Positions 29,094-53,330 of a DNA stretch of 64,000 bases are shown here, in pieces. Below the pieces are notes generated by a model. That model ran no database searches and was not told where the DNA came from. It saw only the letters and a program-made list of their open reading frames with translations. Both the position numbers and the translations under genes were made by a program. Source of the DNA: Allocoleopsis franciscana PCC 7113 (lineage in GTDB: Bacteria > Cyanobacteriota > Cyanobacteriia > Cyanobacteriales > Coleofasciculaceae); NCBI RefSeq assembly GCF_000317515.1, contig NC_019738.1:1873623-1937622 (forward strand). The letters run 5' to 3'. Numbering within the stretch: the stretch's first letter is position 1; every line of letters starts with the position of its first letter.

Positions 29094-29750
29094 TTATTTT
29101 TTCTTCATTGCTAAAGGTAATACAGAAAGAAGAGCCAAAAAACTTAGCGCGATGAAAAAAGGGAGGCGATCGCCTCCCCGCAAAGCCTCTTTCCCAGCTA
29201 CTCCCAGCCATGCATAAGCCAAGGTTCCAGGGATAATGCCCAAGAACGTACCAACGGCATAATAAACCCAAGGGATAGAGGTCAGACCAAATAGGAAATT
29301 GACGACATTAAATGGAGAAATGGGAGCAAAGCGCACTGATAAGACAAAAGCCAAAGGTTTGTCAATTACCGCTTGATTGAACCGTACCAATGCCTTGTGA
29401 TGTCCAAAGCGGCGAACCGCCCAATTCCGCAGCAAGTAACGCGCCACCCCAAAGGCTCCAATCGCTCCCAGCGTGGCACCTACTACCGACAAAAAAGTCC
29501 CCCAGACTAAACCAAAAACGACGCTACCAGCAATGGTGAGAACCGTCCCCGGAACTCCTAAAACTGTGGCTAGAGTGTAAATGAGTACGAATAAATAGAC
29601 AGCCCAGTTACCGCATCGGTGCAACTGCTGCACGAGGAATTGCTGATTAAACAAGCCTTTTAAAGGCGTGAAGCAACACAACAGGCACAGTACCAAAAAG
29701 GCGATCGCTAGCCACAATCGAGGAGTTTTCAGCCGTCTGCTCAGAGTCAT
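29094..29750 (-). CDS. TVP38/TMEM64 (DedA-related) membrane protein
   Basis: 218 aa, polytopic; G..G..L.Y motif-like region; last gene of the ars-linked operon. Confidence 0.65.
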   Translation of the reverse strand: MTLSRRLKTPRLWLAIAFLVLCLLCCFTPLKGLFNQQFLVQQLHRCGNWAVYLFVLIYTLATVLGVPGTVLTIAGSVVFGLVWGTFLSVVGATLGAIGAFGVARYLLRNWAVRRFGHHKALVRFNQAVIDKPLAFVLSVRFAPISPFNVVNFLFGLTSIPWVYYAVGTFLGIIPGTLAYAWLGVAGKEALRGGDRLPFFIALSFLALLSVLPLAMKKK

Positions 29751-29787: not shown

Positions 29788-30783
29788 CTAAACCAAAGCA
29801 CCCCCACAACTCGAACCACAACCCGCTGTGCAACCATAGCAATAGGAAGCCGTGCGAATCTGATCAATTAAGTCTAAACTACCCGCTTCTAAGAGCTTCC
29901 CCACCGTCAATGTTTCCCCAGTGCGAGACTTCGCTCCTAGATTTTCCATTTGGTTAAAGTCGCAATCGTAGACATTGCCCAGATAATCAATCGAGAGTTC
30001 ATCACGACACATCAAATGTTCTATTGTACTTGCATTGTAATTGTCCTCTAGAAACCTGAGATAAGGAGAATATAACTTGGTTCGTTGCAAATGAAACTTA
30101 CTTCTACCCACAGGTAGATTTGTAATTGTAAATAGCTGGTTAAATTGAATATCAAAATGTTCTTTCAAGAACTTTTTGTAATCCTGTTCTAACTTAACCT
30201 GATTGGGAGTTAAAGAAAATTTATCACTCAATGGGAGTGGCGGATTATACACCAAATCAATAATTAAATTGGGGTCTTTCCCATAGCCTAACTGATTGAG
30301 CCATTGAATAGCACGAATAGAATCATTATAGACACCATTCCCTCGCATTTTATCCACATTGTCTTCTAAATAGCAAGGCAATGATGCCACTACTTTTAAT
30401 TGATTTTCGGCAAAATATTCAGGAAGATAGTCGAATCCGGGTTCAAAATAAATCGTCAAATTGGAGCGGACAATGACTTCCTTGCCCGTTTCCCGTGCTG
30501 CCTCAACAATTGGTTTAAATCCATAGTTCATCTCCGGTGCGCCACCCGTCAGGTCAACTATCTTAATTTGAGGAAAGCGATGAATCAGGTCAATGATTTG
30601 ATGGCAAATTTCCGGTGAAAGTTCTTCGGTGCGTTTGGGGCCAGCGTCTACGTGGCAGTGAGTACAAGCCAAATTACAACGCTTGCCTAAATTAATCTGT
30701 AAAACAGTAATTCTGTTTTTAGTTAAGGGTGAATTCAGTTTGGTTCTAAATGGCGTTACTGCTGGCGCTTCTATCTGAGTCAT
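29788..30783 (-). CDS. arsS: Radical SAM / Cys-rich domain protein, ArsS-like (arsenosugar-type)
   Basis: CNLACTHCHVDAGP radical-SAM cluster motif; C-terminal CYGCTAGCGSSCGG Cys-rich tail characteristic of the ArsS family. Confidence 0.6.
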   Translation of the reverse strand: MTQIEAPAVTPFRTKLNSPLTKNRITVLQINLGKRCNLACTHCHVDAGPKRTEELSPEICHQIIDLIHRFPQIKIVDLTGGAPEMNYGFKPIVEAARETGKEVIVRSNLTIYFEPGFDYLPEYFAENQLKVVASLPCYLEDNVDKMRGNGVYNDSIRAIQWLNQLGYGKDPNLIIDLVYNPPLPLSDKFSLTPNQVKLEQDYKKFLKEHFDIQFNQLFTITNLPVGRSKFHLQRTKLYSPYLRFLEDNYNASTIEHLMCRDELSIDYLGNVYDCDFNQMENLGAKSRTGETLTVGKLLEAGSLDLIDQIRTASYCYGCTAGCGSSCGGALV

Positions 30784-30831: not shown

Positions 30832-33447
30832 TTAAGCTTTCCTCACCCGGCAAGCAAAGCATTTGTAGGCTTGCTGACCGGAAAGATTGTCGTAATATTG
30901 GTCATCTACCAGGGTATTGGCGGCTTCATAGTAGGGAGTTCCGAGTTCTTCAGCCATTTTTTGCATCGGGCCAAACGTATGAGGAACGAAGATGGTATCC
31001 TCACGAATACCCTCCCAAATTTGCGCGGTTCCGGTAATCGAACCTCTAGGACTTTCTACGGCGATCGCATCCCCATTCTTAATCCCCACCCTCTGCGCCA
31101 CTTTAGGATGAATTTGAACTAGCCGAATGCCGTTCATTTGCTTACCCGTGTACGTCCACTGAGTTACGGTGTGAAAATGCACCACACTCGGCCTACCAAT
31201 CATCCCCATCAGTGGATACTCTTGGTGTACTTCCCCAGAGGAAATTCCGCCTAACTTTACCTTTTGGGTTAGTGCTTGCGGATTTATTGGGTTTTGGACA
31301 AATTCTTTGCTGTACTCGATCGTTGGATTTTTGCCCGTTACTTCGGGATGGGTGTAAAAGATGGGTAAGGCTGCGTGTCCGGCAACGGCCAACTTTTTCT
31401 CTAATTCTGAGGTATAGATTTCTACTTTGCCACTGGGGGTCAAAAAGCGCTTGCCCTGGTTTCCAGAAGTCGCTGTAACCCCTCTGTTCGCGTCACTATC
31501 CTGACTCGCTGTATCAGCGTTCCTGATACCAAGCCCTTTCACCACCTGATACCAGGAGGGATGATCTAAGTAGAGGGTGCTGACGCCAGGATGATCCAGA
31601 GAAGGACAAGGCCAGCGCAGGGGTTCCGCCCGCTTTTCCATGCGTTCCTGGGTCATACCTCCCATACCAGGGGTATTCTTGACAAAGGTTGCCCAGAGAT
31701 TGCGGTAGTCTTTCCATTCCAGGGGGAAATTCTCTGTCCAGTAGGCGGGTGGATTTTTCTTGTCCAACTTAGCCATAGCGTGTGCCAAGTCGATCCAAAT
31801 TTCCCAATCGGGTTTGGACTCTCCCACGCGAGGAACCGCCTGCTTTTGCCAGCGAATTGCCCTGTCGTCCCGCCGCATATAGACGGTTTCCATCTCAAAG
31901 CCGCTGCACACGGGTAGGATGATATCGGCGTAATAGGCAGATTCTTCCATAAACAAGCCAGTGTAGACATAGAACTCTAGCTGGCGGTAAGCCTCTTTTA
32001 CCTGACGCGTGTTGGCACTGGAGACAAGGGGATTGCCCGCCGTTGCGATCGCCTTCAAGCGATAAGGCTTCCCAGTTAGGATAGATTCGGCAAAATAGTC
32101 TGGGCCAACGGGTAACGCCACATCTTTCTTGGGAGGATTGCCCTCGATTGCCGGAAGATTTAACCCACCAGGCCAAGTATTGTGCATGAAATTGCAGCCG
32201 CCACCATTTACGCCAATGTTGCCCGTAACAGCAGCTAAAAATGCCAGGGTTCGGTAAGTATCGAAGGCGTTTAGTTGATGGGAGATGCCAGCATTGCAGA
32301 AAATTGCGGCCGGTTTTGTCCTAGCGTACTCCTCAGCAATTTGTCTGATTTTACCTGCTGGAACCCCTGTAATAGTTTCTGCCCATTCCGGCGTGTAGCC
32401 TTGCTTAACCAGGTGAGTTTTCAACTCCTCGAAACCAAGCACCCATTTTTGCACAAAGGCGGCATCGTGCAGGTTCTTGTCCAGAATATGATGCAACATT
32501 GCGAGAACCAAAGCTTGGTCGGTATGCGGCTTCGGTGCAATCCACTCATCTGCCTGTGCACCAGTTGGCGTTAGTCGAGGGTCAATTACTATCAGCTTTG
32601 CCTTAGTTTGGGCGCGACTTCTCAGCAGGTAAGCAAAGGTTACGGGGTGAGTTTCCGCTTGATTGGTACCCAAAAATAAGAAGTATTTCGCTGCACCTAA
32701 ATCTTCTTTCCCTGTTGCGCCATCCTTACCGTAGCCGTTGGTGAAATTCCCCAAGCCAAACGTCCATGCTAAAGCGTTTCCTCCAGCATCGTTACAGACT
32801 GGGCCAACATCTGTGTCGTTAGGACTTCCCAAGAGGGTGAAGAAGCGTCCAATTACCGAACCTGTGCCTCGTGGCATTCTACCAGAGGTTTTGTTTGCGA
32901 TAGCGAAGCGCTGCTGCGAAGCGCAGATCGCGCGTACCTCTCCCGCATCCCGAAGCGCTAAGAATTTCGTAGCGATAGTTCCCAACGCTTCATCCCAAGA
33001 AATCGGCTCAAACTTGGAATCCGGAGAACCCTTCTCGCCGGAAACCCGCTTCATCGGACTTTTCAGGCGGAAGCGATTGTAAACCAGTTGTGTCATCATC
33101 GGTCCTTTGACACAAAAGCCCCCCGATTGAACTGGATCGTCCGGTTCACCCAGAACATCAATAATGCGCCCATCTTTGACATGAACTTTTAGGCGGCACA
33201 GGGAGTTACAGAATTGACAAGCACTATCGATGATTGCATCTGGTTGTAGCGCCCCAGATTTCTGAGTAAAGTCAAATTCTGCACTGGGGGAAGTGGTAGC
33301 GGGATAGTACCCATCTTCCTTTGCCTCAGCCTGTCCTTTGAGCAAATCAGCCCCAGTTACGGCAGCAGCACCAATCGCAGCACCTTTCAAAAAGCCCCGA
33401 CGCGAAACACCCTGACGCGATACTTTCTTTTTATCTTTTGATTTCAT
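30832..33447 (-). CDS. TAT-exported molybdopterin oxidoreductase, DMSO-reductase family catalytic subunit, substrate unknown
   Basis: SRRGFLKGAAIGAAAV twin-arginine signal; CQFCNSLC-X27-CVKG = CX2CX3CX27C [4Fe-4S] motif; 871 aa; no adjacent Fe-S or cytochrome subunit gene. Confidence 0.8.
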   Translation of the reverse strand: MKSKDKKKVSRQGVSRRGFLKGAAIGAAAVTGADLLKGQAEAKEDGYYPATTSPSAEFDFTQKSGALQPDAIIDSACQFCNSLCRLKVHVKDGRIIDVLGEPDDPVQSGGFCVKGPMMTQLVYNRFRLKSPMKRVSGEKGSPDSKFEPISWDEALGTIATKFLALRDAGEVRAICASQQRFAIANKTSGRMPRGTGSVIGRFFTLLGSPNDTDVGPVCNDAGGNALAWTFGLGNFTNGYGKDGATGKEDLGAAKYFLFLGTNQAETHPVTFAYLLRSRAQTKAKLIVIDPRLTPTGAQADEWIAPKPHTDQALVLAMLHHILDKNLHDAAFVQKWVLGFEELKTHLVKQGYTPEWAETITGVPAGKIRQIAEEYARTKPAAIFCNAGISHQLNAFDTYRTLAFLAAVTGNIGVNGGGCNFMHNTWPGGLNLPAIEGNPPKKDVALPVGPDYFAESILTGKPYRLKAIATAGNPLVSSANTRQVKEAYRQLEFYVYTGLFMEESAYYADIILPVCSGFEMETVYMRRDDRAIRWQKQAVPRVGESKPDWEIWIDLAHAMAKLDKKNPPAYWTENFPLEWKDYRNLWATFVKNTPGMGGMTQERMEKRAEPLRWPCPSLDHPGVSTLYLDHPSWYQVVKGLGIRNADTASQDSDANRGVTATSGNQGKRFLTPSGKVEIYTSELEKKLAVAGHAALPIFYTHPEVTGKNPTIEYSKEFVQNPINPQALTQKVKLGGISSGEVHQEYPLMGMIGRPSVVHFHTVTQWTYTGKQMNGIRLVQIHPKVAQRVGIKNGDAIAVESPRGSITGTAQIWEGIREDTIFVPHTFGPMQKMAEELGTPYYEAANTLVDDQYYDNLSGQQAYKCFACRVRKA

Positions 33448-35258: not shown

Positions 35259-36159
35259 AAATTCTCCCCTTGCTGATTCCCTCAGCCGCAACAACCAGTG
35301 CCACAATCAGCGCCATCAGCACCAATCCACTGACAAAGAGTGCTGAACGATGATTACCTGTTGCATAAGCCATTTCTAGGGCAATATTGGCGGTGAGTGT
35401 CCGCATCGGTTCAAATAGACTCTTAGGAGTTTGCACGACATTGCCGCAAACCATCAAAATTGCCATTGTTTCACCAATAGCGCGACCTGTTTCTAGAATC
35501 ACCCCCGTGAACAGTCCCGATTTGGCAGCAGGAAAAACAACCCCCCAAATCATTCCCCACCGGGAGAATCCCAGCGCCGACGCACCCCGCAGGTATTCTG
35601 GAGGAACCTTGGCGAGGCTGGCATCTGCCATGAGTGCGACTGTAGGCAAAATCATAATCGTGAGGATAGCAATCCCAGCTAAGAGACTGGTTCCCGGCGG
35701 TTGGATGCGTCCAATAATCGGCACCAATACGACCAAACCCCAGAATCCGTAAACGACGGAGGGAATTCCCGCCAGTAACTCGATCAGCCGTCGATAGAGT
35801 CCGGCAATCGTGGGAGGAGCATAGTAGTGGCAGAAGACAGCAGATAAAATCCCCAATGGTGTCGCTACCAGCACTGAACCCGCCATTGCCAAGAGGGTGC
35901 CCCAAAGCATGGGGGTGAGGTTGTAGAGTCCTTCTGCGGGATTCCAGGATGCATCAGTGAAGAAGCGCAATAGTCCGACGTTTTGCAAAACTGGCAGCGC
36001 TTCCAACCCTAGAAACACCACAATCAAAATGACGATCGCACCCGCAACAACCGCACATCCCCGCAGCGTCCAGATGAGGATTTGGTCACTTTGATAGGGA
36101 GACAAAATTCTGCTCTTTGACAATGTTCTGTACCTTTGGCGATCGTGCGAAATCAACAA
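35251..36159 (-). CDS. PstC-like ABC permease
   Basis: 6-TM permease with EAA-like loop (RGASALGFSRWGMIW); the annotated start overlaps the pstS-like 3' end, so the real start is probably downstream. Confidence 0.7.
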   Translation of the reverse strand: MLISHDRQRYRTLSKSRILSPYQSDQILIWTLRGCAVVAGAIVILIVVFLGLEALPVLQNVGLLRFFTDASWNPAEGLYNLTPMLWGTLLAMAGSVLVATPLGILSAVFCHYYAPPTIAGLYRRLIELLAGIPSVVYGFWGLVVLVPIIGRIQPPGTSLLAGIAILTIMILPTVALMADASLAKVPPEYLRGASALGFSRWGMIWGVVFPAAKSGLFTGVILETGRAIGETMAILMVCGNVVQTPKSLFEPMRTLTANIALEMAYATGNHRSALFVSGLVLMALIVALVVAAEGISKGRIYD

Positions 36160-36940
36160 ATTCCTTCTCCAACCCTTGAGGTTGAGTTTTCATCACCAAG
36201 TTGAGGGGACGGGAAATAGGAAACGTCTCGTTTTGCACATTTGCTGTAGTAGCGGCTACTCCATTAACAGGCAGTAGCTTGATAGGAACACCGTTGCTAG
36301 AGCCATATTCCGCTGTCCCAATCGACACGTATCCGATCGCGTTGGGATTACCCGCAACTGTCTTAATTCCCTGCTCATTGTCACCAATCACCACTTGAGC
36401 TTTGATGTCACTATTCTTGAGCTTGAAGTAGTTCGTAAACAGTTCTAGCGTGGAGCGTCCCTCAGCTTTATTGACTACAGTGATAGGAGCATCCTTGCCT
36501 CCTACCTGCTTCCAGTTGCCAATCTTGCCTGTGTAAATATCAACAACTTGGCGATCGCTCAGGGACTGTACTGGATTATCTTTGTGAAGGATGATTGTCA
36601 CACCATCACGAGCGATCGTAAACGCTTGAAGGTCTTTTTCGTCCTCCTTGAGAGCGCGAGAAACCATACCAATGTTAGCTAGTCCTTTGCGAGCATCCGT
36701 AATGCCGCGAGAGGAACCACCACTCTGCACATCCACCCGTACAGCGGAATGTTCAGCCTCAAAGCGCTTGCCAATTTCGGAGGCTAGAGGTGCAACTGTG
36801 CTGGAGCCGGTTAATACTAGCTTGCCCTGTAATTTATCACTGGACTGTGTTGATGCTTCTGGGGGCTTAGTACAGGATTGTAACCCCATACAAACCGCCA
36901 AACTCATGGAAAGCGATGCCAGTATTCGGAAGTTTTTCAT
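36086..36940 (-). CDS. PstS-family periplasmic phosphate/oxyanion-binding lipoprotein
   Basis: Lipobox LQSC; LTGSSTVAPLA and SGGSSRGI...GMVSRAL motifs of the short PstS family. Confidence 0.75.
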   Translation of the reverse strand: MKNFRILASLSMSLAVCMGLQSCTKPPEASTQSSDKLQGKLVLTGSSTVAPLASEIGKRFEAEHSAVRVDVQSGGSSRGITDARKGLANIGMVSRALKEDEKDLQAFTIARDGVTIILHKDNPVQSLSDRQVVDIYTGKIGNWKQVGGKDAPITVVNKAEGRSTLELFTNYFKLKNSDIKAQVVIGDNEQGIKTVAGNPNAIGYVSIGTAEYGSSNGVPIKLLPVNGVAATTANVQNETFPISRPLNLVMKTQPQGLEKEFVDFARSPKVQNIVKEQNFVSLSK

Positions 36941-37104
36941 AAGTGATGCACTGAAATTATCCTGTCGGAATTAATCAAAGGAGAGGAGGCAGCAACCAAG
37001 GTCAATTGTCCTACCAGGGAATGAGGGCGCAATACTCCCATCTCCTCGTAGCCGGAGCTTTAGGGGGGAAGGGGTTGGGGGAGAGGTATCCCTTGCAGTA
37101 TTTG

Positions 37105-37240
37105 AGACGAGTGGTGTCTGGCAGAACCTTCAGCTTGCGGACACAAAACGACTGGGGTAACTCGTTTTTCTGGTTTATGGCTCACTGCCTGCCTGGATTG
37201 AACCGTGATTGATATGAAATTATATTCATATTTTAATTAA
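37105..37240 (-). promoter_or_regulatory. Duplicated arsR promoter/operator plus dead 5' fragment of arsR, upstream of the pstS-like operon
   Basis: ~85% identical to 57012-57140 (arsR start region). Contains the imperfect palindrome TTGATATGAAATTATATTCATAT. The start codon is mutated to ATA in this copy. Confidence 0.55.
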
Positions 37241-37384
37241 AAAAACGCAACCTAACGTTGAGGAACTCTCCCCGTTTAGGACGCAAAAAATAGCTAATTG
37301 ACAAGTCTATTGAGAATGGACTTTTGAGCCACCCTTCTCAGGAATTCATTCCCTGGCAACTGAGTCACTTATCAAAAATCTGTA

Positions 37385-37639
37385 TTGGTAGGGATGCCTG
37401 CCAACGCAGATGTCGTAAAAGTGACAGACGTGCAGCTCAAACCAACCGCCGATGGTCTAGAGGTGATTTTAGAGACGGCTTCACGAGCATCACCCCAACC
37501 TAAAACCTCCAGCGAGAACCAGACCTTGTTGATTGACTTGAGCAATGCTCAGTTGAACTTACGAGGCGGTGGGGAGTTTCACTCCGAAAACCCAGTTGAG
37601 GGCATCACTTTCTGTAACAGTAACTTCCCTGTCTGCTAA
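37385..37639 (+). pseudogene. AMIN-domain fragment, possible remnant of a TBDR/secretin N-terminus
   Basis: VKVTDVQLKPTADGLEVILET...LLIDLSNAQL pattern, 84 aa, no signal peptide. Confidence 0.3.
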
Positions 37640-37655
37640 CAGCATCCGCATTTTC

Positions 37656-38075
37656 TTAACCCCTACCAAAGAACCGTTTAAAGGGATTTGAGGCAACTTG
37701 CCCAAACCTTCCAGGCAGATTTCGTTGAGCCGCTTGAACCGGGTCTGGATCTGTGAAAATTTGGGCGGCGCGATCGCGAAGCATCCCGTTAGGGTTATCG
37801 CGAAGTTGAGAGCTGTGATCCTGAGAAGTGGAAACAAGCCTTGCGCCTTGTTCACCTTCATCCATTTGGGCATCAGCTAGAGCGGTCTGATAGGCTTGAT
37901 TTAAGGAAGGGAGGCTAGCTGCGATCGTAGGCAGTTCCACAATTCGAGCTTCCAGATTCTGACCAATAGCATGAAGCTGTTGTTGCAGTCCCGATGGCAA
38001 AGATTCATCCTGACGACCAAGGGCGGTCATAAAAGCCACAAGAATTTTTTCGTTTTGAGAGTTTAAAGAAGTCAT
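37656..38075 (-). CDS. Hypothetical protein
   Basis: 139-aa ORF, Gln/Ala-rich, no motif. Confidence 0.3.
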   Translation of the reverse strand: MTSLNSQNEKILVAFMTALGRQDESLPSGLQQQLHAIGQNLEARIVELPTIAASLPSLNQAYQTALADAQMDEGEQGARLVSTSQDHSSQLRDNPNGMLRDRAAQIFTDPDPVQAAQRNLPGRFGQVASNPFKRFFGRG

Positions 38076-38549
38076 GATTTAAAAAATTTTGCCAATACAA
38101 AAATACTGAAAGTCTATTTACTTAATAGTAGGAAAATTTGTGAGCTTTGAACTCAGAGAGTGACAGAAATCTAACTTTGGGCAGAGCCGTTATTTCCCGC
38201 TTCTAGTGGTAAGCCAATACTGTTTTGCGTATTTCCTCACTCAATCAGTAGTGCTATTGGTTCAGAATGACAAACTGATTTTTAATGGTGTAGCCTGCTG
38301 CTTCATTAACAGTAAGCACATCATGACCTGCGGTTTGAAGCAAATTGACGAGATATTTTGCCTGAGAATCTACCCTTCGGGAAGCCACCTACGGTGTCTA
38401 CGTCAAGGAGCAGTCGTAGTCCCGACATGAAGGTACTCCAACCTATGCTGGTGTTTGAATTCTAGTATGAGCGATCAGCTTCGCTGGTGTTCTTATGTGA
38501 TCGCATCACGTACCATAGGCTAGTCATTTGGCTTATAACCCATTAAGTC

Positions 38550-39014
38550 ATGCCTCAGCGAGACGCGATTCATAACATCATCAAGCAAGCTCTCATCAAG
38601 GAGGGTTGGGAAATCACGGACGATCCCTATGTCATATCGTATGGTGAGCGATTTCTCTTTATCGACTTGGCAGCAAGGTTAGATGCGCTCAATGGTATTG
38701 CAGGACGCTTTATCGGTGCTAGACGCGGTAGCAGTCGAATTGCCGTTGAAATTAAGGAGTTTCGAGGCAACTCGGCAATTGCTGATTTGGAGCAAGCGAT
38801 TGGTCAATATGTTCTTTATCGATTACTCCTCGAACAGGTTGATCGAGAGCGTGAGTTGTATCTCGCTGTTGCAGACACAACCTTTGACGGGATTTTCAGC
38901 GAACCGATTGGTGATTTGGTGATGCGTGAGTTACCAATGAAATTGCTTATTGTAGATGTAGAGGCGGTAGAGGTGAAGCGATGGATACCAGCACGAGAGA
39001 GCGGGACATTGTAA
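38550..39014 (+). CDS. xisH: XisH family protein (PD-(D/E)xK-like)
   Basis: MPQRDAIHNIIKQALIKEGWEITDDPY...ERFLFIDLAA...IAVEIK. Confidence 0.8.
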   Translation: MPQRDAIHNIIKQALIKEGWEITDDPYVISYGERFLFIDLAARLDALNGIAGRFIGARRGSSRIAVEIKEFRGNSAIADLEQAIGQYVLYRLLLEQVDRERELYLAVADTTFDGIFSEPIGDLVMRELPMKLLIVDVEAVEVKRWIPARESGTL

Positions 39015-39304
39015 AGCAGGTGATTCAACGATACGCCCAGTTCAAACCTTCTCATGGCCATATTCGACTCGACACGGTATTTGACGACACGCAAAACCGC
39101 TATGCACTAATGCAAGTGGGTTGGGATAGAGGACGACGGGTTAGGGGAAATTTGATTTATGTGACTTTGAGTGAGGGTAAGGTTTGGGTGGAATATGACG
39201 GGATGGAACAGGGAATTACTAAAGATCTAATTGCCGCAGGTATCCCTCCAGAGCGAATTGTTCTTGCATTTCTCCCTGAAGAGCAAACTGCTGCAACTGC
39301 CTAA
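38981..39304 (+). CDS. xisI: XisI family protein
   Basis: Overlaps xisH 3' end; ...RYALMQVGWD...GKVWVEYDG. Confidence 0.8.
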   Translation: MDTSTRERDIVKQVIQRYAQFKPSHGHIRLDTVFDDTQNRYALMQVGWDRGRRVRGNLIYVTLSEGKVWVEYDGMEQGITKDLIAAGIPPERIVLAFLPEEQTAATA

Positions 39305-39324
39305 ACTCAAATTATGATGAGCTA

Positions 39325-39377
39325 GCGATCGCACCTGTACATATATACAGTCAAAACCCACCTACACGAACGAGCGC
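39325..39377 (+). repeat. Left copy of ~50-bp imperfect direct repeat flanking the nuclease scrap island
   Basis: GATCGCACCTGTACATATATACAGTCAAAACCCACCTACACGAACGAGCGC vs the copy at 41536-41584, about 80% identical. Confidence 0.45.
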
Positions 39378-39459
39378 TCTGTTCGTTCATTCTTACATTC
39401 AAGTAGCAGATAAAAGCTATCATACCATCTAATATAAACAAAAAGGTAATGGCACCTTA

Positions 39460-40599
39460 TCAAACACGAATAGGGCTTCCAGCAATGCACCAATTCATAA
39501 CAACTTGTCCAATCTTTTCCCAATCAGAATGCATGGATTTATCAACTATTTTTGCAATCTCATGAGGATTTTTATGTTTAAGATATTCAACGGTATTGCT
39601 GAGCGTATTTTCTCCAAATCCCAGTGATATTTTACATTTACATTCTCCACTATTATTACTGCATTGCCAGTTAGCTTGACACCAATCATCTATAGAACTT
39701 GATATATTGGGAATTAAAGAAGTTTTTACTTCCCAAAAAGATTTAATTTTAGGATTACTTGCATTAATAATTTCCTTCATCCGAGTTCCTTTTTTTATAT
39801 CTAAAAAACGCCTAATCTCGAATGCCGTACTACTAATATTTTCAAAGATTTTTAAAACTTTGAGTCTTTCCTGGTTTCTTGAACACAGTTCAGATAAAAT
39901 TGAGTTAGGTATTAAGTTTTCAATTTCACGGCAATCAAGAATAAAAGTTTGCGTATTTATACAATTTGAATCGCTCTGAGTTTGGATGAGAGATGCTGTG
40001 GAGCCAAAGTTTCCATCAGGAGCAATTTTATCGCTATCTACAATACAAAGACAAAAACGTTTTTTTAATTCTTGAATATTAATATATTCAAGAGAAATTG
40101 TATTGCCGCCACCTCCTCTACCTTCGCATACTATTTTGATATTAATGTTGTTCCATACAAGATAAATTTTTGCTATGGTTTCGTATAGAATAGTATCATG
40201 AATATTTTCACACAGAAGTATGGTTTTCTGTACTAACTCTGAATCATTAAAAAAACGTGGAGCAACTTTAATAATTTGCTTACCTGAATTAGACACCACT
40301 TCTGGTTCATAACAAGAATTAACAAGTTCAATATATCTGGTTACCGCAGAAAGGTAAGATTCTAATTGTGTAGATTCTAATTGTGTAGATTGGTTAAATA
40401 ACTTGTTGTAAGTATTCCTGGCAAATTGAGATAAACGACGGCATTGAGCAATCTTTTTGAAAATTTCTCTCTTAGCCATTACTAAAGGCTTACCTTCCCG
40501 ACGAGCAGATGCAAGATTTTCTAAAGCCAAAACAGTTTCATCGTCCCAACTATTTTCATCTCCATTATCTACTACAGAGCTATTGATAAAAATCAGCAT
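39460..40599 (-). CDS. DUF4435/Toprim-like (AriB/OLD-type) putative nuclease, AT-rich
   Basis: KIVCEGRGGG (E), CIVDSDK (DxD), DCREIENLIP (RExEN) in Toprim order; Cys-rich C-terminus; GC content far below surroundings. Confidence 0.45.
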   Translation of the reverse strand: MLIFINSSVVDNGDENSWDDETVLALENLASARREGKPLVMAKREIFKKIAQCRRLSQFARNTYNKLFNQSTQLESTQLESYLSAVTRYIELVNSCYEPEVVSNSGKQIIKVAPRFFNDSELVQKTILLCENIHDTILYETIAKIYLVWNNINIKIVCEGRGGGGNTISLEYINIQELKKRFCLCIVDSDKIAPDGNFGSTASLIQTQSDSNCINTQTFILDCREIENLIPNSILSELCSRNQERLKVLKIFENISSTAFEIRRFLDIKKGTRMKEIINASNPKIKSFWEVKTSLIPNISSSIDDWCQANWQCSNNSGECKCKISLGFGENTLSNTVEYLKHKNPHEIAKIVDKSMHSDWEKIGQVVMNWCIAGSPIRV

Positions 40600-41235
40600 T
40601 TATACAAGTTCCATCTCGAAAAAACCTAGCGGCCAGTTTAAAAGATACCCATCTGAATTGAATTGAGAGTTTCTTATTGTTACTCCTCCTAGTTTATCGG
40701 ATGGTTCAAATAAAACAATGTTGATTTCATCAGGAGATATTTTACCTTCAGAAACTAATTGTCCTAGGCGATTTACCAATATTTCACTATGGGTTTCAAT
40801 CATTACCTGAATCCGTTGACTTCCCTGCTCTGCAATGGCATAGGCGAGAATTTGGGTATTTTGCACATCTACCACCCAATACTCAGCCACACCCAACTCT
40901 TCATACAGTGCCCGTTTAGTTCCTATATCATCCAGCAACGACGTTTTAGCAACCTCAATAACTAAATTTGGTGCTGGATTCTGATCAAGATTAACAATCC
41001 CCGTACTTGATGGGATAGCCTGAACGCGATCTGCGCTTCGCAGCAGCGCTTCGTTATCGCCAACGTAATAAGACACATCCGGCTGACATTCCCTAACACC
41101 TGGTTTACGAAGAGTAGTGGTGTCTAAACCTCTTAACGGAATACCTTTAATTGCTGCAAACAAATTAACTGCCAGAATAATTACAACATGATCTTGTCCA
41201 TGATCAAAACTAACTGGCAACATCTCAATCCTCAT
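40600..41235 (-). pseudogene. Chimeric ORF: nearly complete Uma2 (DUF820) fused in frame to the C-terminal ~65 aa of an ABC/AAA_15-type ATPase
   Basis: PDVSYY...NLVIEVAKTS...EYWVVDV Uma2 core, then VMIETHSEILVNRL (H-loop THS motif). GC content drops sharply at ~40830. Confidence 0.5.
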
Positions 41236-41535
41236 GTGACCCTTGTAGTAGTAGCCCTTTGCCTTCTCATAAATTGGGTCTTCAATCGTGCGGACATACT
41301 CCTCTCATGAGGCTGTTAACCATATATCTGTGCGGGGTCTGGTTTGTAACTCACTCATGGTCTATATCGGTTGGTAGTTTGGCTTGTAGTTGGCTCATAA
41401 CCACCCTTTTAGCTACCGCTCACCCACATCTTAACGTAGGGGCGATCGCCCTTGGCGCTACGCTGCGCGTAATCGCACACTCTGAATGTGGAGGATGAAC
41501 AGTGAGACTGATAGCGAAGCGCTGCCGCCAAAGGC

Positions 41536-41584
41536 AGATCGCACCCATACCTACATACAGCCAAAACCAACTTACGCGATCGCT
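41536..41584 (+). repeat. Right copy of ~50-bp imperfect direct repeat
   Basis: AGATCGCACCCATACCTACATACAGCCAAAACCAACTTACGCGATCGC. Confidence 0.45.
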
Positions 41585-42333
41585 CCCTCAAAATAAATTC
41601 TAAAGGGTTCAGCGAGAATCCCTAATATTTGATTCAGCTGAGTAATGAAATATTCAGTCAAATCGATTTTGACAACCCGATCTTCTAACCTTATAAATTT
41701 CCAGTTAGTCCCTGTTGAAACTGCACCATACACCACTTGCTGTTCCAGCCCCTTACGAGCATTAAATATTTGAGCAGCAACCATTTGAGCTACACATTGT
41801 CCTAACCCAATGCGGATATCATTATCTTTCGCTTCAACCAAAGTTAAGACAGGCGCAGTCACTAGCGATTGATTGCTTGATGCACTTAAGATAAAATCAC
41901 AGGCTCCCGTTAAACCTTTTGATTCATCAACATTAAACGTATTACCCGAAAAATAACCGATTTTATTCTGAAATATACGTCTTACTTCCAATAAAATCGG
42001 AGTAATAATTAATTCAGATCGAGCTTTTTCTGTACTAATGCTTGCCGCTAAATCTAACGTTTCATCCAGCATTTCCTTAAGCCGTTGAGAAGGTTCAATG
42101 GGTGTCACCTGGCTAAAGAAATGAGGAATATCCTCGACTGTTAAATCGAGGGTAGAAACGGCTTGGTCAATCGTTTTGAAATCACTGTATGACATATTCT
42201 CAGAGTCAGCAGCACTTACAACGCTACCATAACCATTCTGCCAAACCGACATCTTGCACCATGCCCTCAGAATGGAAAATGAAGCTCTGCTCACAAGAAT
42301 TAAACCAGTAATTTTATAAATTGAAGACGCCAA
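41572..42333 (-). CDS. Hypothetical PD-(D/E)xK-like protein
   Basis: CDFIL ... LTLVEAKDND (D...EAK) motif; start codon uncertain. Confidence 0.35.
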   Translation of the reverse strand: MASSIYKITGLILVSRASFSILRAWCKMSVWQNGYGSVVSAADSENMSYSDFKTIDQAVSTLDLTVEDIPHFFSQVTPIEPSQRLKEMLDETLDLAASISTEKARSELIITPILLEVRRIFQNKIGYFSGNTFNVDESKGLTGACDFILSASSNQSLVTAPVLTLVEAKDNDIRIGLGQCVAQMVAAQIFNARKGLEQQVVYGAVSTGTNWKFIRLEDRVVKIDLTEYFITQLNQILGILAEPFRIYFEGAIA

Positions 42334-42410
42334 ATTGAGAGTCGATTACGATCGCCTCCGATACCAGCTTGAGCGATTGCCTCTGCCACTAGCGAAGCCG
42401 ATCGCTCTTA

Positions 42411-42815
42411 CTATCTTTGAGCAGCGATCGCCAGTTTAGCGCCCTTAACTCGACGCAAACGATCCATCACACTCACCACCCGACCATGATCGACTTTTTC
42501 ATCTGCATTGACAATCACCAGTGATTCAGAATTCGTCTCTACCAAAGAGCGTACCGAGTCTTCAAGAGCCTCCAACTGAATCGGTTTACGGTTGAGAGCC
42601 AACACTCCATCTGGCTGAATCGTCACCGTAATTTTGGTACTCGGCTGAGATTTTGCAGTTGAGGCACTGGGTAAATTCACGGGTAACCCTTCCGAACGGG
42701 TTAAATACAGTGTTGAAATAATGAAAAATGCCAGTATCGAGAAAATCACATCAATCATCGGCACAATGTTGATTTCTCCTGGCCTGTCTACCTCATCGGG
42801 AAGCCGCATAGACAT
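42411..42815 (-). CDS. exbD: Biopolymer transport protein ExbD/TolR
   Basis: 134 aa, N-terminal TM, INIVPMIDVIF motif. Confidence 0.8.
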   Translation of the reverse strand: MSMRLPDEVDRPGEINIVPMIDVIFSILAFFIISTLYLTRSEGLPVNLPSASTAKSQPSTKITVTIQPDGVLALNRKPIQLEALEDSVRSLVETNSESLVIVNADEKVDHGRVVSVMDRLRRVKGAKLAIAAQR

Positions 42816-43443
42816 CTCTCCCTTGTTCGTATTGACGACGATAAAGCAGTTCTAACTGACCACCGTACTCCTGAATTAACGCTAGCTGTCGCTGATAAAA
42901 AGAACGGAACATATTGGCGAAAAACAGGGTGAAGATTGCCACAACCAACCCCATCACCGTTGAGACGAGAGCCTCACTAATTCCTCCAGTAACTCCCGTC
43001 GTGCGGCTACCCCCAACATCACCAATCTTCAAGGAAGAAAAAGCCGTCATCAAGCCCAAAATCGTGCCTAAAAGACCCAATAATGGCGAAATTCCAACAA
43101 TCGTATCAAAAACGCTGTTAAAACGCTTTAATGTTGGCAGTTCAGCTTGTGCCGCACTTTCTAAGGCAATGCGAAATTCCTCAGGATTGGGGCGGTCTAG
43201 TTCTAAGGCTTCCAAGAAAATCTTGGCAATGGGCAAGTCAGCATTCTGCTGTAGGTAGTTAATCGCATTTCTTGGGTTCTGTTGGTACATCTTCAGCGCA
43301 TCTCTGACAACTCGACGCTGCCGACGATTCACCCGAAACCAAAACAGCAATCGCTCAGCAATCAGGGCAACAGACGCCAGGGAAAAGACCAAAAGCGGCC
43401 AAGCGACGATTCCACCCGCCTTAAAAAAATTAACAATTGACAT
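42793..43443 (-). CDS. exbB: MotA/TolQ/ExbB proton channel
   Basis: 3 TM helices, GLLGTILGL... motif. Confidence 0.8.
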   Translation of the reverse strand: MSIVNFFKAGGIVAWPLLVFSLASVALIAERLLFWFRVNRRQRRVVRDALKMYQQNPRNAINYLQQNADLPIAKIFLEALELDRPNPEEFRIALESAAQAELPTLKRFNSVFDTIVGISPLLGLLGTILGLMTAFSSLKIGDVGGSRTTGVTGGISEALVSTVMGLVVAIFTLFFANMFRSFYQRQLALIQEYGGQLELLYRRQYEQGRDVYAASR

Positions 43444-43961
43444 AAATTCTCAGAAATGGTATGTCATAAAACCGAGTCAGCGTTGGCGCATCTCTCAACA
43501 AGAAAAAGCTGATAAATACTTTCAATAGAAATATTGCTAATAGTTCTCATTGTCAAGTATTTCGCTGAAAAAAGCCTCGTATCTGGCGAGTGGGAAGACG
43601 TTTTGTTCTCAAAAAAGACGCCTGAAACCACTGTTATATAAAGATTTCGCCCAATTTTTCTTGTAGAACCCAACCGACCTGGATTCAAATTTCTTACTTG
43701 ACATAGGTAGCTAAGTCGTTTTACTTTGTGATGCTTAAATAAAAATAGTTGCAATAAACCATATTTTCTTGAGAAGTCCCTGAAAGTTTCAGCCTAGTAG
43801 AGCGTCAAGGTAGATTTGAGGGGTAATTTAATAAAACTTCTGTCCCCCTTGTCCTCTACCAACCCTTCAATTCAAGGTTGACAGACTACTAGTACAGCGC
43901 GGCGGAAATAACCCACCAGTTCCAAAAGATTAAAAAGCTTGCTGTACAAGCAATATCCCTT

Positions 43962-43989
43962 CTGCCTCCTGCCTCCTGCCTCCTGCCTT
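43962..43989. repeat. CTGCCTC heptamer x3-4
   Basis: ctgcctcctgcctcctgcctcctgcctt upstream of the TonB-dependent receptor gene. Confidence 0.5.
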
Positions 43990-44155
43990 CTTGCACTAGG
44001 GCGCTAGGAATGAACTTTGACAGCGTGTCTTTTGACGTAGATGACAGCCTCAATCAAACTATCTGTAACTTTTTCGAGCCAGCGCTAACTGTATTCCCTG
44101 AGCGTTTGCCTCAAAAGCCAAATTGGGTGGTATGCGTCATTTTCGTTAAAAAAGC

Positions 44156-46354
44156 ATGAAATTGCATCTTCTTGCGCCTAGCCTTTTCCTACTTAGCTGG
44201 ACTATTGCTCCAATCGCTAGGGCACAGACAAATTCCCTGACAACAACCGATATTATCCAGACAGATACAATTGCCAACGCTCAGCCTGAGCCGTTTATGC
44301 TCAAGTCCGCCCCCAAAGCTTTACCGTCAGAAGCGCCCAACTTAGACATTCCTCGACTCAGCGAGTTCGAGCGTATCCCCACTAGCGCTAAGTTGCTCGT
44401 TCAACAGCCCACCGAATCTAAACCCAGTCTCATCCAAACCCCTCAAGACACTCAGCCAAATTCCCCCATTAACGAAACTACACCCGATGCTTCCGAGGCG
44501 GAAGAAGAAATTGAGATTGTTATAACGGGAGAGCAAGATCTTATCCCGCAAACGTCTGCTCCAGAGTACAGAATCACTGAACAAGAAATCCAAAAGCAAG
44601 GCGCTGATAGTGCAGCAGAAGTATTGAGGGGTTTACCCGGATTTGCCATTAATGATGTGGGTTTTGGAGCCGATATTCATACAGGGACTTACTACCGAGG
44701 AGCTTCTATCAATCAGTCCGTTTTCTTAATCAACGGCAGACCTATCGGCACTAATATCAACACATATCATGGTGCGACTGACCTCAATAGCCTTCCAGTT
44801 GGGGCAATTGAACAGGTGGAATTATCCAGTGGTACGAGTTCCACTTTGTACGGTTCAGAAGCCTTTGGGGGAGTGGTCAATATTGTTACAAAACAAGGTC
44901 AAGAAGTTCCCCAACTCAATCTTGGAGTGCAATATGGCTCTTACGAACAGTTGAATTATCGAGCGAGTTATGGCGGTTCCACGGGTTCGTTAAGGTTCAA
45001 CTTCGGCTACGAGCAAAACCAGGCAGATAACCGCTATCGTGTCCCAGTAGGTGCCGCTAATCGTGATTCAGAGGGGCGTTTGTTTAACGGAGACACGGCT
45101 GTTAGCAATTACTTTGGTAATCTCGCGCTCGATTTAAATCCAAGAAATACTGTTAGTTTGGATGCTTACAAAATTACCAGTCGTCGGGGTTTACTTTATT
45201 TCGGTTTCCCCTTGCAAAGAGACCGATTAGACCACGATGCATTCAACATCGGTCTATCTTGGAAAACCTTACTCGGTGGCGGTGATGATTCTATCCTCAG
45301 AACAACACTCGCGTACAACCAAGATTACTTCAACACCTATGGCCCGACTCAAAACATTTATTACCGTACAGGTACGCTGAATTCACAATCTCTTACCGGG
45401 AGAGTAGAACATCAGTGGCAAATCACCCCGAACTACAAGCTGACTTGGGGAGTTGATTTACAAAATCAAATGTTAAAGGGTGAGACGTTGAGTACAGTTC
45501 CCAACCGAATTGCCTTAAATGAAACTGAAAATAGAGATAGGTTTCATACCGCCCTATTTGCTTTAAATACCTGGAAACTTACCGATGCATTCCAGATAGA
45601 TTTGGGACTGAGACAGAACTTTAATAGTGAGTTTGGTAGTTATTTAAATCCTAGTGTAGGAACGCGATGGGCTGTTACTCCATCTGTTGCCGTGCGTGGG
45701 AGTTGGGTTTCCGTTCAACGCAATCCTGGTTTAGACCAGTTGTATGTCTATGACACGGTTCATAATTGGTTGCCCAACCCTGACTTAGAGTCTGAAACGG
45801 GTTCTTCTTGGACAACTGGAATCGATGTTGCGTTTTCTCCCAGTTTGACAGGGCAGTTTACTTACTTTGGTAACCGATTAAATGACCGCATTGCCATCCA
45901 AGCGGGTCGATGGGCAAACATTGGTCTGGTTAATACGAACGGATTTGAGGCGGCACTTCGCTGGCAAATGACTTCTGAGTTTTCCACCTTTTTTAATTAC
46001 ACGTATACGGATGCGAAGATTGAAACTGGCTCGGAGAAGGGATTACAGTTAGCGATGATTCCTTACTCTGTTGCACAACTCGGCATTGGTTATGCCTCGG
46101 CTGGATGGCAGCTCAATTTGTTTGCAAGTTACAACAGTGGTGCCCGTAGAGCCTTTTTTAATAGACCCGATGAGAGTACTACAGATTTTATTTCCTCGTG
46201 GGTGAATTTAGATTTGAGTGCCCGTATTCCTGTCACTCGGAATATAGGCGTCGTCGTCTATTTAGAAAATTTGGCAGATGTAACTTACGAAAAAGCCAAT
46301 CGGATTTATCAGCCGGGTTTGACATTCCGCATCGGTTTACAGAGCAGTTTTTGA
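44156..46354 (+). CDS. TonB-dependent outer-membrane receptor
   Basis: Signal peptide, plug domain (RGLPGFAINDVGFGAD), 22-strand barrel, C-terminal ...TFRIGLQSSF. Confidence 0.85.
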   Translation: MKLHLLAPSLFLLSWTIAPIARAQTNSLTTTDIIQTDTIANAQPEPFMLKSAPKALPSEAPNLDIPRLSEFERIPTSAKLLVQQPTESKPSLIQTPQDTQPNSPINETTPDASEAEEEIEIVITGEQDLIPQTSAPEYRITEQEIQKQGADSAAEVLRGLPGFAINDVGFGADIHTGTYYRGASINQSVFLINGRPIGTNINTYHGATDLNSLPVGAIEQVELSSGTSSTLYGSEAFGGVVNIVTKQGQEVPQLNLGVQYGSYEQLNYRASYGGSTGSLRFNFGYEQNQADNRYRVPVGAANRDSEGRLFNGDTAVSNYFGNLALDLNPRNTVSLDAYKITSRRGLLYFGFPLQRDRLDHDAFNIGLSWKTLLGGGDDSILRTTLAYNQDYFNTYGPTQNIYYRTGTLNSQSLTGRVEHQWQITPNYKLTWGVDLQNQMLKGETLSTVPNRIALNETENRDRFHTALFALNTWKLTDAFQIDLGLRQNFNSEFGSYLNPSVGTRWAVTPSVAVRGSWVSVQRNPGLDQLYVYDTVHNWLPNPDLESETGSSWTTGIDVAFSPSLTGQFTYFGNRLNDRIAIQAGRWANIGLVNTNGFEAALRWQMTSEFSTFFNYTYTDAKIETGSEKGLQLAMIPYSVAQLGIGYASAGWQLNLFASYNSGARRAFFNRPDESTTDFISSWVNLDLSARIPVTRNIGVVVYLENLADVTYEKANRIYQPGLTFRIGLQSSF

Positions 46355-46794
46355 GAGGGAATGGGTAATGGGTGATATAACAAAAGGCGGAAGGCAGAAG
46401 GCGGAAGGGAAAGGATTGGCGGGTCTTGGTTTCAGTATTTGGCGAGAGTCAAGAGTCGCCTTGGCGGCTGCGATAGCAGCTAGATGTTTCGTGACGTTGT
46501 AAACCTCTATTCATCTTCCGCTCTTAGCATAAAATTGCAATTAATCTCAATTACTTAATCTAAGAATTATCAACAATTCCTAGAAGATGGGGATGATTTT
46601 GTCAAGAGGTAAAAGAGTGAAAGCTTTATGGTTCATGGGTTATCGTTGAACGATAGCTCTGCGATCGCCTAATTTTTTCTTGACAACAGCATCTCAGTCA
46701 TTTTATCGTTTAACTCGTTAATGCAACTTATATGCAATAATTTTTAGCGGTTCAGACGGTATGCGTTCTAGTAAGCAGGGAAAGAGTAGAGGGG

Positions 46795-48441: not shown

Positions 48442-48478
48442 ACCACATCAAAAAGGAGTTGAGAGGTTTCTTCAGCCT

Positions 48479-49132: not shown

Positions 49133-49210
49133 TTAAGTTAATACCTTTTCAAGGTTCTTTCTCTATGCTTCTTACAATTCATTGATTTAGAATCTGGCTG
49201 ATTAATACTG

Positions 49211-50296: not shown

Positions 50297-50348
50297 TTTC
50301 CCTCGTTACCCTTCAACCTGGTAAATCCTGAATTGAGGAAAAAAGCGA

Positions 50349-53244: not shown

Positions 53245-53330
53245 ATGTTGGAGTGACACCCTGGGCGACGCTGGCTGATTTGTCGTTATGTTGGAGTGAC
53301 ACCCTAGGCAACGCTGGCTGATTGGTCGTT
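53245..53330. repeat. Tandem 43-nt direct repeat x2 between convergent genes
   Basis: ATGTTGGAGTGACACCCT(G/A)GGC(G/A)ACGCTGGCTGATT(T/G)GTCGTT duplicated head-to-tail. Confidence 0.6.

Follow-up and report, generated by a model that had tools for sequence, protein, structure and literature searches.

A decayed arsR gene with a retained operator in front of a pstSCAB-arsS operon in Allocoleopsis franciscana PCC 7113: ancient duplication, reciprocal loss and probable repression in trans

In a 64,000-nt stretch of Allocoleopsis franciscana PCC 7113 (contig NC_019738.1, positions 1,873,623 to 1,937,622; hereafter the window), a segment of approximately 130 bp stands both in front of an intact gene for an ArsR-family repressor and, 20 kb away, in front of genes for a Pst-type transporter and for arsenosugar biosynthesis. 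We asked how the copy in front of the transporter genes arose and whether the operator that it carries is still read by the surviving repressor. The best explanation in our view is that an operator-arsR unit was duplicated in ancient times, that the arsR copy next to pstS (arsR_B) decayed, and that the surviving ArsR (ArsR_A) probably represses the pst-arsS operon in trans at the operator of the lost gene (opB). The homology of the two copies, the anatomy of the pseudogene, the synteny, the age and reciprocity of the arsR losses, and the specificity and conservation of the operator motif are all shown by the sequence comparisons.

Both copies are read on the minus strand. A blastn comparison within the window aligned 37105-37231 (copy 1) with 57011-57133 (copy 2) over 127 nt at 82.7 % identity with one 4-nt gap (E 3.6e-32), and a repeat search of the window recovered the same pair as repeat families D6 and D10 (37105-37191 with 57011-57097, 84 %; 37185-37231 with 57087-57133, 87 %). 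An earlier note on this DNA, which had described a two-copy segment of this length made up of an arsR operator/promoter and the 5' end of arsR, is borne out on both points, and the palindromes that it quoted occur exactly. At 57111-57136 the sequence is TTGATATAAATATAATTTCATATCAA, with no mismatch to TTGATAT-N12-ATATCAA; at 37209-37234 it is TTGATATGAAATTATATTCATATTTT, with three mismatches, all within the distal arm. Copy 2 comprises the operator and the 5' end of the intact arsR, including the 89-nt spacer to the upstream arsM. The arsR start at 57082-57084 (CAT, a minus-strand ATG) aligns with TAT at 37176-37178, so that the ATG is indeed replaced by ATA in copy 1 as the note had it. A second homologous block pairs 36977-37016 with 56785-56824 (85 %, E 3.4e-7, blastn in the window) and corresponds to the 3' end of arsR. 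Copy 1 can accordingly be laid out beside the live gene as follows.

37104..37178, minus strand: 5' fragment of pseudo-arsR (arsR_B codons 1-25), with ATG changed to ATA at 37176-37178; the in-frame translation, INQKNELPQSFCVRKLKVLPDTTRL, is still open
37018..37103, minus strand: G+C-rich filler of approximately 86 nt, which replaces approximately 187 nt of arsR encoding the whole helix-turn-helix (approximately codons 26-86)
36971..37017, minus strand: 3' fragment of pseudo-arsR, with the last 15 codons (GRTIDLGCCLLSFD) and the stop at 36971-36973, from pairwise alignment and blastn
56779..57084, minus strand: intact arsR_A, 101 amino acids (AFZ17531 / WP_015181687), matching Pfam HTH_5 and NCBIfam NF033788

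The arsR C-terminus is in frame in both copies, ending in GRTIDLGCCLLSFD and a stop in copy 1 versus GRAIDLGCCLLSFN and a stop in the live gene, and the 30 nt from the pseudo-arsR stop to the ATG of pstS equal the spacing in relatives with an intact arsR. No ArsR-like open reading frame (ORF) is left at 36971-37178 in the ORF listing. This region combines homology to a functional gene with a lost start and a replaced helix-turn-helix, as is characteristic of a pseudogene. Because the last 15 codons of arsR and the native junction to pstS are retained, copy 1 is not a transplanted operator but an entire arsR in decay, connected to pstS through the native 30-nt spacer. No source of the filler was found in the window or in any compared locus. 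Positions 37064-37079 of the filler are identical over 16 nt (GGGGGGAAGGGGTTGG) to 33960-33975, in the pstB region encoding the PNPFPL motif (E approximately 0.03 in the window), which could be chance or the trace of a template switch.

The arrangement in which arsR directly precedes pstS proved to be common. Our scan for relatives of ArsR_A in one genome per species returned at least 56 loci, and among the matches listed arsR was followed directly by pstS, and by pstSCAB where the contig was long enough, in 42 of 51 loci with 56-91 % ArsR identity (tblastn). Such arsR-pst loci span four phyla, being found in Nostocales, Moorena, Symploca and Coleofasciculaceae as well as in Nitrospirota, Verrucomicrobiota and a metagenome-assembled genome of Phycisphaeraceae. 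Loci L002, L003 and L010 have a single arsR in the order arsM-arsR-pstSCAB(-arsS), and L011-L013, L016, L025, L032-L034 and L037 have the order arsM-arsS-arsR-pstSCAB. In its 5' fragment copy 1 shares 88 % identity with L002 and with the syntenic contigs L061-L064 described below, 86.5 % with L008 and 85 % with L003, compared with 82.7 % with copy 2. From the 3' fragment through the spacer into the start of pstS, copy 1 is collinear with L002 and L003 (83-84 % over 106-116 nt), as it is with L061 at the arsR-pstS junction. These comparisons show arsR-pstSCAB to be the ancestral arrangement. The earlier note had stated that the dead copy now heads a different operon; it does precede the pst operon, but arsR-pstSCAB is the ancestral order and, since arsS lies in its 3' part, the operon behind copy 1 is itself arsenic-related.

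Syntenic contigs were found through proteins of the same 90 % clusters. Contigs L058 and L061-L064 share the genes that flank the locus in the window (Ser/Thr kinases, GGDEF/EAL, TgpA), and both groups have arsM and opA, the operator of the live gene in the window, in front of arsR_A and opB in front of arsR_B.

L058: approximately 90 % DNA identity to the window; arsR_A intact; only a 3' remnant of arsR_B (codons ~67-98)
L061-L064: approximately 83-85 % DNA identity to the window; only the first 25 nt of arsR_A; arsR_B intact

PCC 7113, L058 and L061-L064 each have two operators and one live arsR, and the copy that survives differs. The arsR_B lesions of PCC 7113 and L058 are different deletions, both of which spare the operator and a weaker second site next to it. 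Downstream of arsR_B are found pstSCAB, a molybdopterin oxidoreductase gene (MoOx), arsS and a VTT-domain gene in L058, and pstSCAB-arsS-VTT in L061-L064. Between the copies, L058 has an acyltransferase gene followed by 198 nt that match the window from 55513 to 55317, and in L061-L064 this place is taken by orf148, which is convergent, and by a gene for an endonuclease/exonuclease/phosphatase (EEP); their homologues in the window lie at 56286-56759 and 55460-56293, respectively. Pairwise identities of the operator and 5' regions were 82-93 % within a type (A-type: 92 % between the window and L058, 93 % between the window and L001, 85 % between the window and L061; B-type: window and L061 86 %, window and L058 82 %, L058 and L061 90 %) and 66-79 % between A and B of one genome, 77 % in the window. 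The copies group by type across lineages; the operator-arsR duplication is therefore older than the divergence of these lineages, and the copies have escaped homogenisation since. The claim of a copied regulatory module in the earlier note consequently holds as to the duplication, which is real; it is old, however, and involved a whole operator-arsR unit rather than a transplanted operator. Within L061-L064, the dead A and live B arsR agree completely over a tract that runs from approximately 20 nt before the ATG as far as codon 7 (L061 7996-8073 versus 9612-9700), although the operators differ, which suggests local gene conversion or a recombination junction.

The history that we propose begins with an ancestor that would have had the order arsM-operator-arsR-pstSCAB-arsS, still held by L002 and L003. 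The operator-arsR unit was duplicated before PCC 7113, L058 and L061-L064 diverged, to give arsM-opA-arsR_A-(inserted genes)-opB-arsR_B-pstSCAB and the genes beyond. One arsR then became redundant and was lost, arsR_B in PCC 7113 and, by another deletion, in L058, and arsR_A in L061-L064, with a later insertion of 18 kb between the two halves of the cluster in PCC 7113.

37269..55316: segment of 18,048 nt specific to the PCC 7113 lineage, from comparison with L058 and L061

The copies lie 20 kb apart because this insertion separates the cluster halves. The segment replaces a 36-nt perfect hairpin of L058 (AACTCAGACTGTCCC-TTAAAT-GGGACAGTCTGAGTT) between GACCCAAG and CCTCAACG; no terminal repeats were found at the insertion and no obvious transposase was seen in it. 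It contains genes for XisH/XisI, Uma2, repeat-rich proteins, a 627-aa protein and others. Beyond it, on the plus strand, window positions 55460-56293 are homologous in one frame to the 277-aa EEP gene of L061 (75 % identity) and are split into two ORFs of the same frame (55601-56017 and 56024-56296). An in-frame stop must therefore lie between the two ORFs, and the EEP homologue is probably a pseudogene.

The two operators were delimited as follows.

opA, 57111..57136, minus strand: 26-bp 12-2-12 inverted repeat, TTGATATGAAAT-TA-TATTTATATCAA on the minus strand; core at 57114-57133, ATATGAA-N6-TTtATAT, one mismatch
opA site 2, 57098..57117, minus strand: weaker overlapping site 16 bp downstream, ATATCAA-TCGCGG-TTCAATC
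opB, 37209..37234, minus strand: 26-bp 12-2-12 element, AAAATATGAATA-TA-ATTTCATATCAA on the minus strand; core at 37212-37231, a perfect ATATGAA-N6-TTCATAT
opB site 2, 37196..37215, minus strand: ATATCAA-TCACGG-TTCAATC
37235..37268, minus strand: sequence upstream of opB common to the B copies of relatives (CCTCAACGTTAGGTTGCGTTTTTTT), from alignments

The T-run at 37235..37268 has a similar counterpart in front of opA as well and is the left boundary of the duplicated unit. The centre of opA is approximately 39 nt upstream of the arsR ATG, and a B-type site, ACATGAATATAATTTCATAT, precedes pstS in L058 and L061-L064. The elements are 26-bp imperfect inverted repeats with a TGAA-N6-TTCA core and a position conserved at orthologous loci, and they can be compared with published 12-2-12 sites, AATACCTGAACA-GA-TGTTCAAGTATT and TACAATTGAATA-GT-TGTTCAATTGTT (PMC8790569). 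We regard opA and opB as predicted operators of canonical ArsR/SmtB 12-2-12 geometry and core.

The TTGATAT/ATATCAA arms singled out by the earlier note did not hold up as the recognition element. At up to three mismatches the outer palindrome gave 6 matches in the window compared with 3.1 expected, copy 1 scoring no better than chance, and because of this lack of specificity the inner core replaced it as the search key. At up to two mismatches the core gave exactly 2 matches, opB with none and opA with one mismatch, compared with 0.23 expected. In 516 kb of related loci the core was located upstream of arsR in 49 of 50 loci among the matches listed, its centre in most at approximately -43 from the arsR start, with second sites at +16 in many; when overlapping second sites were set aside, a single core match lay elsewhere. 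The motif is thus not one that abounds without association to ars genes, the finding that the note had named as contrary to its proposal. An alignment of 55 sites (from the window, L058, L061 and the 49 loci) gave the consensus aagAtaTGAAa..attTTCATATcAAT..c.aTTCAa, with the downstream part TTCATATcAAT..c.aTTCAa. The invariant part is TGAA-N6-TTCATAT, and most cyanobacteria have the full ATATGAA-N6-TTCATAT. Each arm of the outer palindrome combines the three outermost bases of a half-site with its ATAT; the left arm is conserved solely in the closest A-type copies, and the right arm is conserved because it is the start of the weaker second site, T(C/G)AA-N6-TTCA, 16 bp downstream.

On the coding strand, A-type sites have the 6-nt spacer ATTATA and all B-type sites the reverse complement, TATAAT, a difference that could reflect a small palindrome-mediated inversion. 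An 11/12 inverted match of the palindrome interior was rejected as support for such an event, since it is mostly explained by the inner palindrome and only the 6-nt spacer is reversed. In locus L005 (2505-2730) the operator is 215 nt upstream of arsR, not approximately 43, and the extra sequence, with short tandem heptamer-like repeats (gaattacgcattacgaattacgaattt), is apparently an insertion between operator and arsR. A metagenome-wide scan for ATATGAA-N6-TTCATATCAA returned at least 80 loci, mostly on AT-rich contigs (most below 40 % G+C), and was uninformative as a source of further regulon members. An arsR-like gene directly followed the motif in only four cases among the matches listed: L106, with the layout arsM-arsS-arsR-pstS, and L067 (405-427), L108 (4692-4714) and L142 (3717-3739). 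The latter three are unrelated low-G+C metagenome contigs on which the same site is found approximately 65-90 nt in front of the gene for a distant ArsR-family member (38 % identity). Further branches of the family are therefore served by the motif as well.

The protein that would read both operators belongs clearly to the ArsR family. ArsR_A matched Pfam PF01022 (HTH_5) with 54.6 bits (cut-off 22, 1e-14) and NCBIfam NF033788 with 78.4 bits (cut-off 55). A phmmer search of the PDB returned Rv0081, HlyU, NmtR, BigR, CgArsR and CzrA over residues 11-93 (E 1e-10 to 1e-7); the best solved relatives scored only approximately 36-42 bits, and the closest solved ArsR, CgArsR (6j0e), scored 38 bits. 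Cysteines 12, 95 and 96 are kept in 49 of 49 alignable orthologues, among which the recognition-helix region, EQSLLSHHLK, is almost invariant. Given this conservation, a single ArsR is expected to recognise both operators. Between residues 13 and 94 of ArsR_A there is no cysteine, helix alpha3 being TRLAVLEILMEGP, and the classical arsenite site of R773 (CXCXXC / ELCVCDL) is therefore absent. As in AfArsR of Acidithiobacillus ferrooxidans and CgArsR of Corynebacterium, the candidate ligands for trivalent arsenic, As(III), lie outside helix alpha3. AfArsR uses a vicinal cysteine pair at residues 95-96 with Cys102 as third ligand, and the third ligand of CgArsR is Cys55; here it would instead be the N-terminal Cys12. 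The Cys12/Cys95/Cys96 arrangement is not known to match any characterised As(III) type, those of AfArsR and CgArsR included.

The genes behind opB, and the methyltransferase gene upstream of opA, are the following; the ORF limits of pstC, pstA and pstB are mechanical.

36086..36940, minus strand: pstS-family substrate-binding protein (Pfam PBP_like_2 7e-42; TIGR02136 200.3 bits, cut-off 206.6)
35251-36159, minus strand: pstC (TIGR02138 248 bits, cut-off 196)
34332-35306, minus strand: pstA (TIGR00974 247 bits, cut-off 193)
33487-34377, minus strand: pstB (TIGR00972 320 bits, cut-off 343)
30832..33447, minus strand: molybdopterin (bis-PGD) oxidoreductase of 871 amino acids exported by the twin-arginine translocation (TAT) pathway, between pstB and arsS
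29788..30783, minus strand: arsS, arsenosugar-biosynthesis radical SAM enzyme (TIGR04167 417 bits, cut-off 300)
29094..29750, minus strand: VTT/DedA-domain membrane protein (Pfam VTT_dom 3.7e-23), last gene of the same-strand run
57174..58142, minus strand: arsM, arsenosugar-type arsenite methyltransferase, AFZ17532 (NCBIfam NF038099 580.5 bits, cut-off 400), upstream of opA

PstC and PstA thus score above their model cut-offs, and PstB and PstS slightly below. The first intact gene downstream of opB is pstS, 281 nt from the operator centre, and the VTT gene is syntenic in L058, L061 and L020. Motif searches of the window found no operator upstream of arsM.

The surviving ArsR probably controls the pst-arsS operon, because the operator of the decayed copy is intact in front of it. 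We propose that an ArsR_A dimer would bind opA and opB when metalloid is absent, repressing its own gene at opA and, in trans and from 20 kb away, the operon consisting of the leader, pstSCAB, the molybdopterin oxidoreductase gene, arsS and the VTT gene at opB. Upon release of ArsR by As(III) or a related trivalent arsenical bound at Cys12/Cys95/Cys96, a transcript starting at opB would run through the 281-nt pseudogene leader into these genes. The binding of ArsR, the position of the promoter and the co-transcription from opB are predictions of this scheme, and a trivalent arsenical is the presumed inducer because of the gene context (arsM and arsS). Promoter and terminator scans (sigma-70) detected neither a terminator-like site nor an alternative minus-strand promoter between opB and pstS. 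With the Pho box taken as PyTTAAPyPy(T/A) in 11-bp phasing, no triple repeat scoring at least 20 of 24 was present on either strand at 36930-37700. The 286-nt leader contained no Rfam family and had a folding z-score of -0.19, giving no indication of a riboswitch or structured leader. A leader with no terminator, promoter, Pho box, Rfam family or unusual fold favours uninterrupted transcription from opB. AT-rich -10-like hexamers lie inside each operator, the B-type spacer TATAAT being a perfect -10 hexamer on the coding strand. A plus-strand sigma-70 match, TTGAAC-17-TATATT at 37198-37226, points away from pst and is regarded as a by-product of the half-site.

Several observations weigh against repression in trans. 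A perfect opA persists in L061-L064, where all that follows it is 25 nt of arsR and a convergent gene, and since it persists there with no gene to control, retention of an operator is by itself no proof of function. Nor is opB measurably better conserved than the adjoining pseudogene: between the window and L061, B copies differ at approximately 3 of 40 nt in the operator and 7 of 63 nt in the pseudogene, counted by eye on the alignments, too few sites for power. The outer distal arm of opB has diverged, and a simple sigma-70 scan found no minus-strand promoter at either operator. The cysteine pattern differs from every characterised As(III) site, which makes the inducer uncertain, and our scan of PCC 7113 covered a 64-kb window of a 7.47-Mb genome, in which another ArsR paralogue or further sites are possible. 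The persistence of opA in L061-L064, the lack of significant excess conservation, the degenerate arm and the missing consensus promoter would all be expected if opB were simply the slowest-decaying part of a dead gene, with pstSCAB through arsS expressed constitutively or driven by a promoter in the filler or leader. We consider this unlikely, given that the opB core is a perfect family consensus although the adjoining arsR has lost its start and approximately 60 codons, that B-type operators precede pstS in 3 of 3 lineages across two independent arsR_B deletions, each sparing the operator and site 2, and that the 281-nt leader has no other promoter, Pho box or terminator.

The locus might also be read as a recent copying of a regulatory module of approximately 130 bp from arsR to an unrelated operon, which would have created new regulation. 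That two copies occur in one genome, with only the 5' part obvious by eye, invites such a reading, but copy 1 also retains the arsR 3' end and the native junction to pstS, the arsR-pstSCAB order is ancestral and found widely, copy 1 matches the pst-linked arsR of other genomes as well as or better than it matches copy 2, and the same two-copy structure is found in relatives that differ by 10-17 % in DNA. We regard recent copying as very improbable. Slighter still is the chance that the repeat is a dispersed mobile element, similar to a miniature inverted-repeat transposable element, or an assembly artefact. The window does hold small dispersed repeats, such as a 40-nt element at 32893-32932 and 41025-41064; the segment discussed here, however, has only two copies, each of them homologous to a coding gene plus the DNA in front of it and each set in a conserved gene order, terminal repeats were looked for and not found, and the same sequence is present in independent assemblies (a Logan SRR610358 contig at 100 %, and metagenomes of the Joint Genome Institute). 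These data leave repression in trans by the surviving ArsR as the reading we favour. One ArsR serving two promoters, the dead copy fronting another operon, is a plausible two-promoter regulon, and the small ArsR regulon predicted in the earlier note is a reasonable expectation.

The molybdopterin oxidoreductase has several features of its own. It has a canonical twin-arginine signal, SRRGFLK, and no Fe-S partner gene adjoins it. PCC 7113 and L058 alone have it between pstB and arsS, and it is absent from L061-L064 and the 56 genome loci, among the matches listed. No NCBIfam model was matched above its cut-off (highest scores: Fdh-alpha 317 bits, PhsA 279, ArrA 187). In the PDB the nearest relatives, with 140-200 bits, are FdhF, PhsA-type thiosulfate reductase and ArrA, and the protein may be a redox enzyme of a new type related to arsenic. 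The 40-nt element mentioned above (GTTTGCGATAGCGAAGCGCTGCTGCGAAGCGCAGATCGCG) forms an inverted pair 8 kb apart, with one arm inside the oxidoreductase ORF and the other inside a Uma2 ORF. It recurs in L058 (18918-18961) and is therefore a small dispersed repeat tolerated within coding sequence. Elsewhere in the window, tandem paralogous Ser/Thr kinase genes lie on the minus strand at 58967-60337 and 60399-61901 (repeat families D4, D7 and D8), the second with an extra glycine- and proline-rich insert (GTRGRGDAETINPTEYQFPFPPYQGGAGGGFPEHEG) that resembles a small in-frame inserted element. Coding tandem repeats are found at 3686-4441, 48130-49105 and 49430-50164, the types being a 126-nt period with at least 5 units in a 666-aa ORF, Q/E/R-rich degenerate repeats and a 69-nt period, and a 43-nt tandem duplication is located at 53245-53330.

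The predicted system resembles SmtB-smtA, ZiaR-ziaA, AztR-aztA and AzuR-nmtA of cyanobacteria in its winged helix-turn-helix ArsR/SmtB-family repressor and its 26-bp 12-2-12 operator with a TGAA-N6-TTCA core. SmtB-type systems have one or two adjacent repeats near the start of the regulated gene and are autoregulated, as is predicted here, and AzuR-nmtA involves an unlinked target (PMC8790569), as we propose for opB. Unlike these proteins, ArsR_A lacks the alpha3N and alpha5 metal ligands and has the three invariant cysteines 12, 95 and 96 instead, and its candidate targets are a Pst-type transporter and arsenosugar genes rather than a metallothionein or an efflux ATPase. In Synechocystis PCC 6803, mutation of arsR (Sll1957) changed only arsBHC-rpaB-slr0948, the genes beyond arsBHC being reached by read-through (PMC4010505), arsM was not under ArsR control (PMC4284471), and arsS was co-transcribed with arsM (bioRxiv 10.1101/2022.09.23.509062). 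Action in trans on one unlinked operon and a very small regulon are points of likeness to our proposal, as is an arsM outside ArsR control, matched in PCC 7113 by an arsM with no operator. The target differs, being acr3-arsH-arsC in Synechocystis compared with pstSCAB through arsS and the VTT gene here, and the trans arrangement here, unlike that of Synechocystis, would have arisen by decay of a cis copy.

Cyanobacterial ars clusters of the type arsR-pstS-gap3-MFS/arsJ-acr3-arsC, where MFS denotes the major facilitator superfamily, have arsR upstream of pstS, and co-regulation has been suggested (Huertas et al. 2014, PMC4284471); such an arsR-pstS cluster is listed for Nodularia (nsp33490-33550; PMC3610870). 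These clusters share with the present locus an ArsR gene directly upstream of a PstS-family gene, but they contain a lone pstS/sphX with efflux and reductase genes, whereas here a full pstSCAB occurs with arsM and arsS, and with neither acr3 nor arsC. In the literature searched, coverage of which was incomplete, we found no ArsR operator in front of a full pstSCAB that is accompanied by arsM and arsS, no report of the operator motif itself, and no duplication with reciprocal arsR loss. The notion that arsR-pstSCAB, conserved from cyanobacteria to Nitrospirota, Verrucomicrobiota and Planctomycetota, constitutes an uncharacterised arsenic-responsive system with a new Cys12/Cys95-96 sensor, and in this lineage, where it is joined to arsM, arsS and the TAT-exported molybdoenzyme, a dedicated pathway of arsenic uptake and transformation, is in our estimate unlikely. 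If it were true, a trivalent arsenical would switch on a Pst-type importer and periplasmic arsenic redox chemistry that feeds arsenosugar synthesis; the importer would be either an arsenate-proof phosphate pump or a true importer of arsenate or organoarsenicals, and the molybdoenzyme a new kind of arsenic oxidoreductase.

The element itself is of an ordinary kind, an ArsR/SmtB 12-2-12 operator beside a pseudogene, with a neat history that changes no established concept. The locus is a clean and datable natural case of how a cis-autoregulated operon may become trans-regulated, by a route in which repressor and operator are duplicated, either repressor is lost according to lineage, and both operators are kept. 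It also provides a well-supported operator motif for a widespread, experimentally untouched subfamily of ArsR proteins in which the sensing of arsenic is tied to a Pst-type transporter and, among the cyanobacteria considered here, to arsenosugar genes as well. For PCC 7113 it offers a candidate pair of arsenic-responsive promoters and a testable hypothesis on the competition between arsenate and phosphate.

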